From assembly GCF_044324785.1 (NCBI RefSeq), contig NZ_CP172128.1: a stretch of DNA of 64,000 bases. The stretch is one strand, 5' to 3'. This stretch comes from Escherichia coli. GTDB lineage: Bacteria; Pseudomonadota; Gammaproteobacteria; Enterobacterales; Enterobacteriaceae. Below are positions 3,001 to 6,000 of the stretch, piece after piece (within the stretch, counting starts at the first letter, position 1; each line of letters opens with the position of its first letter). The position numbers are program-made.

Positions 3001-6000
3001 GCCTGGACGTTATGTTGTGGGGTTTGAGGGCCAATGGAACGAAAGCGTACGGTAAGGGCTCCGTTTGGGAAACGGACAATATTGTACGGTTGCGTTATCG
3101 CGGTAGGGTGTACTCCCGCGCTGTACGGTGTTTTCAGGAGAATTGGTCTTAATCGGATAACCTAAATGCGATACAGCAAGAGCGACAACTTAAAAGCGAT
3201 TAAACCTCCGCCGCCAGAACGGTACAGTCCCTGACACAGGCACCACTGGTATAATCCAGTAAAGAGCATATGGAGAACTTATCATGTCGTTACGCAACTC
3301 TATACATGATTTTATAATGCTGCTCCCGGCGCTGCTGTTGGTTGGGTGGTTAGTTTTGGTGATAATTCTCATGTTTAGGGATGATAAATGTGACAAAACT
3401 TACCGTGAAGGTTCGTTTCCCGAATTTATTTGTCTCCATTCTGAACGCTCGTCACTTCGAGAAACCGATTCTGAGAGACTCAATGTCAAATATACAGAAA
3501 ACAATCACAAAAATAGGTAAAACTAATAATACTATAGCTAAAAAAATAGTTACTTTTCTGTATCACCTGTCTCTCTCTGCTTTTTCATGGCTACTGTCGT
3601 ATTTATGTCTGTTGCGCGGTTTTATCTGTGTGTATAAAATACATCTTTATTCATTGTTATCTGAAAATTTGCGTATGCTGATAAAAAATCCCATTTCTTA
3701 TTTTCATATTGGCACATTTTTATTATCAGGAAAAAAAAGTCATCTTCTGGAATACTGGAAAGCAGAAGTTATCATGCGGGATAAGTTTGTTTTTCACCGG
3801 CTTATCAGGAACGGTATGCAGAGGCAGAGAGGCTTTCTTCTGTGGTGGCGCCTGGCTAATGAAATGTATATATCAGGGAATAAAAAACAACGAAAATGTG
3901 CGATTAAGATAAAAAATGCGCTTATGGCAAAGTATGGATGTGATATTGGTCTGGGGGCGCAGATTGGTAAAGGCCTCGTGTTACCCCACCATTCAGGTGT
4001 CGTCATTCACGGTAATGTAAAGATCGGTGAGAATGTGATTATACGGCAGAACACGACCATTGGTGAAAAGGAATCTGACAGCAGAGAGAATTATATCGTT
4101 ATTGGTGATAATGTCGATGTAGGTGCCCATACTTGTATTATCGGGCTTAACGTAAAAATAGGCAGTAATGTAAAAATTGGAGCCATGTCTTTTATTATGG
4201 AGGAGGTTCCGGATAACTGTACCTACGTTACCAGGAAAGAATCACGGGTAATTATGCATTAATCATGATGATATTATTCACAGTTTTATTGTATTGTTGA
4301 TTGAGAACTTTATCCGGGCGGGGGTATGGCCTGAGTACAGGAAGGAAGCCCCCGTGATTGTGGTGATTTTTGTTACTTTATTTCAGTATGCGGCAGATAT
4401 CCATTGCATCCTTGCGGTCGCTTTTTTTCCTTTCAAAAGGCAGTTACGCCGCTTCTGCCTTATATCTGATGAGCCTTTGGTGGTATCCATGAGTCTGTAA
4501 GCAGACTCTGATACACAATGTCATGATGTTATCTGAAATGTTTATTGCTCAGTCTGCCGTTCCTTCATCCTGAGCCACCGTTGTTCTATTATCGCCAGTC
4601 TTTGACCAGCACTCTGTGCTTCAGTTTCTGAGACCTGCCCATCGGGATGACCATCCAGCCCATAACGAGGGACGCCGGCGACAGAGGTCCGCTGCAGATA
4701 TACGCGGCGGGAGGTGATGCAGGACACTGCACAGAACCATTCGTCCATGGACAGTTCTGTATCCGGGTTTTCTGCCAGAAATGCCGAAATATCATTGCTG
4801 ATGCCAATTTTCAGGGGGATAAATCCACCGCCTTCATCACGAAGATGAGGAAACAGGGTTTTTATTTTTTCCACGCACTCGTGAGTATACTCTCTGGTCC
4901 AGTGGGCGGGACGTGGGAAACGGTGTCTTTTCTTTTTCTTCTTCCGGGCCGGCGCTTCGGGGATATGTGTTTCGACGGCAGATGAAAATATTCCTGTGGG
5001 TGTTGATTCTGTCGCCTGTTCAGTAGATACAGGCACGATAATATCTGTTTGTTCGGATAAGGATGGTGGCGAAAAAGTTCTACGTTTTTTCACCACAATG
5101 ACGGGGGTTTTCCTTTCTTTCTGATGTTTTTCCATAAATACCTCGGCTGGCTGGTTTTACTCTTTAATAATATCACAATCCATAAATTAGTAAATTTTCC
5201 GCCAGGTGATTTTTATAGCTAATAAGTCCGTTCTCTGAATGTTTATACTCGCTGTAGTAACAGTTATGGTGCGACAGCCCTTTCATTTTCCTGAAAGAGC
5301 TTTCAGAATATAAAAGTTAAGTAAATGGCAGCCACAGAAACTGATATAACGAAACAGAATAATTCAAATATTGCAGTTGAGTTTCCGACAACCGGATTAT
5401 TGATAAAGGAAAAGTAATCCGCCAGATTCGGGTAAACAATCGCTGCACAGGATAATTGCCAGGCTGTGGAGAAAACAGCATGATACCGGTACTGGAACCG
5501 TGTTTTCAGGGAGTACCGGATATGTGGTTTTTTTCGACAGTTCTGTTTCTGCTCATTGTTATCTGCAGTGTGGCTGGCGTTGTGAATGCACTGGCTGTGC
5601 GGCGTGAATTACATGCACGCAGGGAACAGGAATATCATGCCCGGGGGCGGACTGCGATAGGCGAGCGTATCCTGCGGGAACGGTACGAAAAGTTCCGGCG
5701 CCGCAGACAGCACTAAACAAAAAAAAAGCCCCCTTTCAGGAAGGGGGACTCACTTGCGTTTTGATATGAGTAATTTTTGTTGCTTTTCTGTGTGCTTCTT
5801 GATCGATAGGAATTTAAATCCCAAAAAGATTAAAAAAACACCCCAAAACGGATGTTTATTCAACACTGCCTGCGTGCCATGAGTGCACCGCCGTCAATTA
5901 AATGGATCTTATCGATTGATACTGTATATCACTGATGGTTTTTTACTCCATTCCCCTGAAAATGGACGCAACTTCCCCGATGCGGCTCTCAGCCGCACAC

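Follow-up and report, generated by a model that had tools for sequence, protein, structure and literature searches.

A FopA (YafB)-type FinO-domain RNA chaperone gene near the replicon of an Escherichia coli IncK2/Z plasmid, with an Inc RNA as its likely partner

According to our in silico analysis, the gene at 4542–5135 on the minus strand of the window (the whole 64,000-nucleotide stretch of Escherichia coli DNA analyzed here) is, judged by its sequence, an ordinary orthologue of the characterised FopA (YafB). Its product is probably a FopA-type RNA chaperone of an I-complex plasmid, which would pair the Inc RNA with the repY-repA leader and lower RepA and plasmid copy number. The most likely partner of this protein is the Inc RNA, located 89–158 nt upstream of window base 1 and therefore off the window. 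The family has been reported, with close Escherichia homologues, and the gene is in that respect already known. An earlier note, made from the window sequence alone, described a FinO/ProQ-domain RNA chaperone gene near the replicon and proposed a partner RNA in the adjacent non-coding DNA; its observation was confirmed, while its interpretation was partly supported. The features of the locus are the following.

1–873, plus strand: repA, RepZ-type initiator of 290 aa (ORF, annotated repA), base 1 being the first base of its GTG start codon
4507–4541, minus strand: conserved 3' flank of fopA, where homology to pCol1B9 and pCH49 stops at 4507
4542–5135, minus strand: fopA (yafB) orthologue, an intact ORF with an ATG start, 197 aa plus stop codon
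4545–4904, minus strand: FinO domain and C-terminal helix (codons 78–197), defined by pLDDT and Foldseek, with Tyr146 and Arg157 retained
4905–5135, minus strand: N-terminal FopA-type region (codons 1–77), predicted to be disordered, with two basic stretches
5136–5277, minus strand: conserved upstream region of fopA with a putative promoter, a short 5'UTR and GAGG, about 95% identical to pCol1B9

The ORF is real, and its coordinates are exactly those given by the earlier note. Reading of the sequence places a GAGG Shine-Dalgarno motif 5 nt upstream of the ATG, and a promoter-like TTTACT-16 nt-TATTAT with an upstream TG is found at 5194–5167. In near-identical plasmids, this CDS is listed in RefSeq under the name “ProQ/FINO family protein” (WP_032353553.1). 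Window positions 4300–5500 are 100% identical to eight E. coli plasmids in which the gene carries this annotation, and poultry is the source of most of those with a recorded source. The identical gene is present in at least 14 sequenced plasmids, and tblastn detects the family of the protein in 3,207 plasmid records. Copies about 84% identical, found in IncI-type plasmids, are named yafB by some annotators. The gene had also been assigned to an AT-rich block, which is true of its flanks (36–39% GC; 39% at 2358–4541 and 36% at 5136–5455) but not of the gene itself (49% GC versus a window mean of 50%).

A profile search, proposed in the earlier note as the check on its domain claim, detected the ProQ/FinO domain. 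Pfam PF04352 matches residues 84–186 over profile positions 4–102 of 109, with 48.3 bits for a gathering score of 27 (E = 1.1e-12); the outcome that the note had set against its own claim, no detectable domain, was not found. A sequence search also matched the protein to the ProQ and RocC FinO-domain chains in the PDB. We then modeled the protein with AlphaFold2 from a 24-sequence alignment. The pLDDT is 90–96 over residues ~78–196 and 42–60 over residues 1–77. When this predicted model was compared to the PDB with Foldseek, the top 26 matches were all FinO-domain structures (RocC 7rgt/7rgu, FinO 1dvo, Lpp1663, and NMB1681), with E values of about 1e-6 to RocC 7rgt/7rgu and FinO 1dvo and target-normalised TM scores of 0.8 for RocC and up to 0.84 overall.

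These results bear out the earlier description of a basic N-terminal region followed by a FinO-like core. The first 80 residues contain 17 lysines and arginines, and the two basic stretches are KKRR at residues 16–19 and RKKKKKRHRFPR at residues 64–75. The first of them belongs to a PV(I/V)(I/V)(V/I)KK(R/K)R motif which is kept even in the IncK2 and IncI2 relatives that are only 32–38% identical. In the FinO domain, Tyr146 and Arg157, described as RNA-contact residues in the FopA paper (PMC7491321), are invariant across the 24 aligned family members. The protein ends 11 residues past the Pfam match and lacks a ProQ-type C-terminal domain.

To place the protein within its family, we compared it to the NCBIfam models. 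It scores far below the cut-off of the FinO model NF010317 (30.8 bits versus 136). The ProQ equivalog NF003434 gives 27.3 bits versus 127 and covers the N-terminal FinO part alone. The protein is therefore a ProQ/FinO family member but neither F FinO nor ProQ. It shares with F-like FinO (1dvo) the FinO-domain fold and the logic of chaperoning a cis-antisense RNA (FinP in that case) onto an mRNA; however, it has a distinct N-terminus, FinO regulates conjugation through traJ and not replication, and the window gene lies outside a tra operon. It is flanked by genes for an acetyltransferase and an IS91 transposase, neither of them a tra gene. Identity with F-like FinO was thus rejected on the profile score, the non-tra neighbors and the absence of a FinP match in the window, in agreement with the earlier note, which had held that the gene is not F-plasmid FinO and not at the end of a tra operon. 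The chromosomal ProQ was likewise rejected, given its profile score and the plasmid location of the gene. ProQ of E. coli and Salmonella and RocC of Legionella resemble the window protein in FinO-domain sequence and fold and recognize terminator hairpins with 3' tails, but ProQ carries a linker and a Tudor-like C-terminal domain that the plasmid-borne protein lacks. Compared to ProQ, a narrow target range is expected.

The closest characterised protein is FopA, the renamed YafB of the IncI1 plasmid pCol1B9 of Salmonella Typhimurium SL1344 (Gerovac et al., 2020, RNA 26:1448; PMC7491321). In that work, Inc dominates the FopA RIP-seq reads, and FopA binds Inc, a repZ 5'UTR fragment and the Inc-repZ complex at about 1 µM, accelerates Inc-repZ duplex formation and shields Inc from RNase. 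Inc is described there as an antisense RNA of about 70 nt directed against the repZ leader, with a stretch of 4 U at its end. According to a review (PMC9977716), which also states that FopA has an in vivo effect on copy number, the outcome of Inc/FopA pairing is repression of RepZ and of copy number.

Using RefSeq NC_017718.1 as the pCol1B9 reference, we found that 163 of 194 residues (84%) of the window protein are identical to FopA, with 92% positives in an ungapped alignment (E = 5e-122). Both proteins belong to the same length class (197 versus 200 aa), have two basic N-terminal stretches and Tyr146/Arg157, both highlighted in the FopA paper, and lack a ProQ-type C-terminal domain. The promoter region is also conserved, and in both plasmids the gene lies a few kb downstream of an I-complex replicon with an Inc RNA, a 29-aa leader ORF and a pseudoknot. 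The two loci differ in their replicon, which in the window is of the IncK2/Z type, with a RepA of 290 aa that diverges from the 343-aa RepZ after its start. They also differ in gene neighborhood, since the yafA-fopA-yagA arrangement is not found in the window: an AT-rich acetyltransferase block stands in place of yafA and the adjacent small ORF, and yagA and the colicin gene are deleted, the deletion reaching into the colicin immunity gene.

The replicon itself was identified by comparison with related plasmids. One of the eight plasmids identical over 4300–5500, pPK8275-145kb, is typed IncK2/Z, MOBP, and MPF_I and matches the window at 99.8% over 13.5 kb, which is also the value for the record CP080166. 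The window derives from an I-complex plasmid of E. coli, of type IncK2/Z, and repA at 1–873 places the gene near the replicon, as the earlier note had stated. The searches returned no exact counterpart of the window, the closest record being 99.9% identical. As the window begins at the repA start codon, the leader upstream of base 1 was reconstructed from plasmids 99.6–99.9% identical over window positions 1–5500; two of these plasmids agree at every position of the 400 nt upstream of repA. In these plasmids, the Rfam model PK-repZ scores 177 bits at −162 to −13 relative to window base 1, and a sub-threshold CopA-like antisense match is found on the strand opposite to PK-repZ. A 29-aa repY-like leader ORF extends from −77 to +13, so that its last codons and its stop lie in window bases 1–13.

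On the minus strand of this leader, at −158 to −89, we found an Inc-type RNA preceded by a TTGAAT −35 hexamer. The PK-repZ model covers the same sequence as Inc, on both strands. The 70-nt K2/Z Inc RNA is CCGUAUUCUGUGAGGCCCCCAUAAUCUUCUAACGUUCCGCCAAGUUCGAUGAGAAGAUUAUGGGGGUUUU, and its deduced fold is a long hairpin followed by UUUU (−29.9 kcal/mol, z = −5.4). Compared to the Inc RNA of pCol1B9, 13 of 70 positions differ; in four mid-stem pairs both partners are replaced and the pairing is maintained, and the 5' tail, the lower stem, the loop and the U4 tail are identical. Given the 99.6–99.9% identity of the plasmids from which the leader was reconstructed, the Inc gene is presumably also present on the window’s own plasmid. 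Being located outside the window, the Inc RNA was therefore not visible to the author of the earlier note. That note was right on the family of the protein and on the general logic of an RNA chaperone acting with a specific antisense or structured RNA, but not on where it placed the partner, and it did not recognize the orthology to FopA/YafB.

We also searched the window itself for RNAs of this kind. An Rfam scan of the whole window at gathering thresholds did not reveal a second copy of Inc or of the replicon leader, nor FinP or CopA; only an IS3-type ALIL pseudoknot was reported. A search of the window for the loop motif of Inc and stem-loop I returned one match with 3 mismatches, which is at chance level.

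The model that we favor builds on the gene, its domain, fold and key residues, the orthology to FopA, and the Inc/repY/pseudoknot leader seen in near-identical plasmids. Inc would be transcribed from the strand opposite to the repA leader. The FinO domain (residues ~78–196) would grip the ~70-nt Inc RNA at its 3' U tail and at the base of its terminator hairpin; FinO domains recognize the base of a terminator hairpin and the 3' end, as in the RocC-RocR structure (PMC9674577). Aided by its basic disordered N-terminus, the protein may then stabilise Inc and make it pair faster with stem-loop I in the repY-repA mRNA. This pairing would block translation of repY and prevent formation of the pseudoknot, which would be required for translation of repA to start at window base 1. 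RepA would fall, leading to a low plasmid copy number and a low cost to the host, and we infer that repA is the regulated output of the Inc/FopA circuit. Binding of Inc, its protection and faster duplex formation come from the literature on the pCol1B9 orthologue. By analogy, the same activity may be exerted on the Inc RNA of the window plasmid, with a lower copy number as its presumed result.

Another mode of action is offered by PcnR of IncI2 mcr-1 plasmids, the other characterised member of this clade (Yang et al., 2021, NAR 49:3981; PMC8053102). PcnR does not bind the antisense RNA and acts on a stem-loop of the leader mRNA at the repR start (PMC8053102). The mechanism is thus not uniform in the clade, and the window protein could repress RepA through a stem-loop of the repY/repA leader mRNA, independently of Inc. 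PcnR, too, is a FinO-domain protein of ~198 aa encoded on a plasmid; its gene directly follows a repA gene under the control of a leader peptide and an antisense RNA, and the protein represses synthesis of the replication initiator and copy number. The IncI2 protein has the same architecture, including the N-terminal PV(I/V)(I/V)(V/I)KK(R/K)R motif and the invariant FinO-domain residues, and the binding of FopA to the repZ 5'UTR fragment would also fit. However, the window protein is only 32% identical to the IncI2 protein, the in vivo ligand pool of FopA is mostly Inc, and the leader in question is of the repZ pseudoknot type and not of the IncI2 repR type. Orthology to PcnR was not retained on the basis of this identity and leader type. 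Since the protein is 84% identical to FopA and the leader is of the repZ type, we regard a PcnR-like mode as unlikely.

The surroundings of fopA are heavily rearranged, which raises the question of whether the gene still serves the plasmid. Both flanks have changed, with yafA and yagA lost and IS91, a Tn3-family inverted repeat and a colicin-immunity remnant nearby. The dN/dS relative to FopA is about 0.5, which is not strongly purifying and, together with the 16% residue difference from FopA, indicates that constraint is only moderate. Other IncK2/Z plasmids also carry quite different FinO-domain alleles. From these observations, fopA could be a decaying passenger in a recombination-scarred region. 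On the other hand, the ORF is intact, its promoter, Shine-Dalgarno motif and key residues are conserved, and both the gene and its family recur in many plasmids, as detailed above. All rearrangement breakpoints, at 4507 and 5277, fall immediately beyond the promoter-gene unit; at the nucleotide level, homology with pCol1B9 spans the gene together with 142 nt on its upstream side and 35 nt on its downstream side, and stops there. As every breakpoint spares this unit, and given the other counterpoints, we consider a loss of function very unlikely and retain the FopA-type chaperone.

The same breakpoints bear on the location of the partner RNA proposed in the earlier note, in the adjacent non-coding DNA at 5136–5455 or 2656–3280. 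In the FinO family, partners are often encoded close to the gene of the protein. On the upstream side, only 5136–5277 is conserved with other fopA loci, and this is the part that carries the putative promoter and 5'UTR. The following segment, 5277–5398, is a remnant of a colicin immunity gene: it shares 92.7% identity with the 3' end of the pCol1B9 copy, and a ...KALSGK* C-terminus is still readable. On the other side, 2656–3280 is lineage-specific mosaic DNA: as a whole it occurs in only 28 plasmid records, and a piece of ~150 nt within it turns up, in DNA that carries no annotation, in more than 3,800 unrelated plasmids of many genera. A terminal inverted repeat of the Tn3 family stands alone at 3019–3056 and agrees with a Tn6454 repeat quoted in PMC8560879 at 31 of 33 bases. 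Comparison of the loci showed that neither flank accompanies fopA in its IncI1 or IncF relatives.

Searches for RNA genes in these flanks gave a similar picture. An Rfam scan of positions 1–12000 at E ≤ 1 yielded no match in 5136–5455 or in 2656–3280, and the numbers of promoter-like and terminator-like sites in 2300–5800 equal the expectation from shuffled sequences. In the same interval, a terminator scan did not find a canonical intrinsic terminator 3' of fopA; an inverted repeat, GAGTCTG-N4-CAGACTC, lacking a U tract, lies at 4491–4508, just beyond the conserved 3' flank. The flanking intergenic regions were also folded, as the earlier note had suggested. Single-sequence folds of 5136–5455 and 2880–3280 on both strands gave z values of −2.0, −0.7, −1.5, and −0.6, none of them compelling. 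The first belongs to 5136–5455 on the fopA-sense strand and is weakly low in energy, and 2880–3280 contains several perfect hairpins. In view of this promoter, colicin remnant and mosaic DNA, and with breakpoints that spare the promoter-gene unit, we find a partner encoded in either flank hardly probable, the Inc RNA upstream of repA remaining the likely one.

We then compared the FinO-domain alleles carried by related plasmids. In the canonical IncK2 plasmid pTMSA970, the same site is occupied on the opposite strand by a gene for a FinO-domain protein that is only 38% identical. Another plasmid typed IncK2/Z carries a variant with 52% identity, and the variants of IncF plasmids are 62–65% identical. 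Moreover, the identical fopA block also adjoins a 343-aa RepA of the IncI-gamma/K1 type. The FinO-domain allele is thus not tied to the replicon type, which is only a mildly new observation.

This distribution suggests, as a hypothesis, a cassette-like exchange of these genes together with recognition of Inc RNAs by shape. In its extended form, which we put forward tentatively and consider rather doubtful, FinO-domain genes would be exchangeable cassettes beside I-complex replicons, and FopA would also target, in trans, Inc RNAs encoded by co-resident plasmids. Should FopA read nothing but the invariant parts of Inc (hairpin base, 5' tail and U4 tail), its action would extend to the Inc of every co-resident I-complex plasmid. 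The copy numbers of formally compatible plasmids would thereby come under coupled control, a cross-talk that is undescribed for FopA. The window plasmid combines an IncI1-type FopA with a K2/Z-type Inc in which four stem changes are compensated, and offers a natural test of shape versus sequence recognition.

The practical value lies in annotation: fopA (yafB) is a suitable name for the gene, and the Inc RNA, as its likely ligand, can be placed just upstream of repA. Beyond this, little is added, since a characterised plasmid copy-number co-repressor has here a routine orthologue, which RefSeq already assigns to the ProQ/FinO family.

Two further minor observations were made. The Rfam scan of 1–12000 also returned a sub-threshold group II intron domain at 8515–8590 and one riboswitch match at chance level. 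Upstream of the acetyltransferase gene, near 3105, the sequence CGCGGTAG was considered as a possible ops/JUMPstart-like element, from which it departs by two mismatches.

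Strongly divergent alleles of the FopA family are carried by other plasmids of the comparison, whose loci bear L numbers.

38% allele: pTMSA970 (IncK2/Z), L008 3846-4454, opposite strand, same replicon-proximal site
52% allele: pEC013 (IncK2/Z), L012 6001-6624, beside PerC and HTH-domain genes
62-65% alleles: two IncF plasmids, L006 and L007 6001-6618

Our comparison showed that the N-terminal PV(I/V)(I/V)(V/I)KK(R/K)R motif and the FinO-domain Tyr and Arg are kept in all these divergent alleles (pTMSA970, pEC013 and both IncF plasmids). The PerC/HTH-domain neighbours in pEC013 resemble the pair annotated further along the window, after IS1414.

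On either side of fopA, the window was compared with pCol1B9.

3624-4506: AT-rich block, carrying an acetyltransferase gene at 3675-4262 (+)
5277-5398 (-): remnant of a colicin Ia/Ib immunity gene at its 3' end, with 92.7% identity to pCol1B9 10186-10308

The gene in the block encodes a hexapeptide-repeat acetyltransferase, annotated as a serine acetyltransferase or as a colanic acid biosynthesis acetyltransferase. At this place pCol1B9 carries yafA and an adjoining small ORF instead; the IncK2 plasmid pTMSA970 has a copy with 83% identity there. In the immunity gene remnant, the C-terminal KALSGK* is still legible. This remnant marks the loss of yagA and the colicin gene by deletion, relative to pCol1B9.

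Since the window opens exactly at the repA GTG, its source record was probably rotated so that repA comes first. A repY-like leader ORF of 29 aa terminates at window base 13. Just outside the window, upstream of base 1, lie the PK-repZ leader with its pseudoknot and the gene for the Inc antisense RNA (-158 to -89).

L011 1339-1500 and L004 1839-2000: repA leader just 5' of base 1, in two loci holding the sequence immediately upstream of repA
1239-1716: non-coding segment of ~480 nt downstream of repA

The non-coding segment shares 91-94% identity with IncI1 (pCol1B9, pCH49) and IncI2 plasmids and falls inside a longer match of ~85% to one IncF plasmid. It is probably the replication origin/CIS region.

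Between repA and fopA, 2656-3280 is mosaic DNA.

3019-3056 (+): lone Tn3-family terminal inverted repeat, GGGGTTTGAGGGCCAATGGAACGAAAGCGTACGGTAAG

This repeat agrees at 31 of 33 bases with a Tn6454 repeat quoted in PMC8560879. No second copy of it was found in the window, and it is therefore a transposon scar. The adjoining ~150 nt (3054-3200) turn up again in over 3,800 plasmids of many different genera, in stretches that carry no annotation. A 26-nt stretch at 2960-2985 lies inside a perfect hairpin (GCTACGCCGGAA-N10-TTCCGGCGTAGC) and recurs, inverted and with 100% identity, in pTMSA970 (L008 4510-4535), a short way downstream of that plasmid's divergent FinO-like gene.

Further features were recorded beyond fopA.

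5729-5747 (-): strong intrinsic-terminator-like hairpin, CCCCCTTCCTGAAAGGGGG then CTTTTTTTTT
7560-7922: truncated ABC-ATPase-like ORF
7951-8514: pentapeptide-repeat protein of 187 aa, after the ABC-ATPase-like ORF
8715-9923: IS1414 transposase gene
~9982-11081: PerC-family and HTH-domain regulator genes after IS1414, from the annotation of a near-identical record

The hairpin sits between an unannotated 86-aa ORF (5456-5716) and the IS91 transposase gene. RefSeq names the 187-aa product only "pentapeptide repeat-containing protein"; we take the pair at 7560-8514 to resemble mcbF and mcbG, the genes for microcin B17 immunity. Beside IS1414, 8515-8590 (-) matched the Rfam model for a domain of group II introns below threshold (34.4 bits vs 40, E=0.001); a remnant intron may have its 3' end here. 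Within IS1414, astA (heat-stable enterotoxin EAST1) is predicted at ~9095-9208 (-) by the annotation of a near-identical record. Elsewhere in the window, an IS3-family insertion sequence is marked at 22168-22284 (-) by its frameshift element, an ALIL pseudoknot that scored 107.8 bits with Rfam RF01497.
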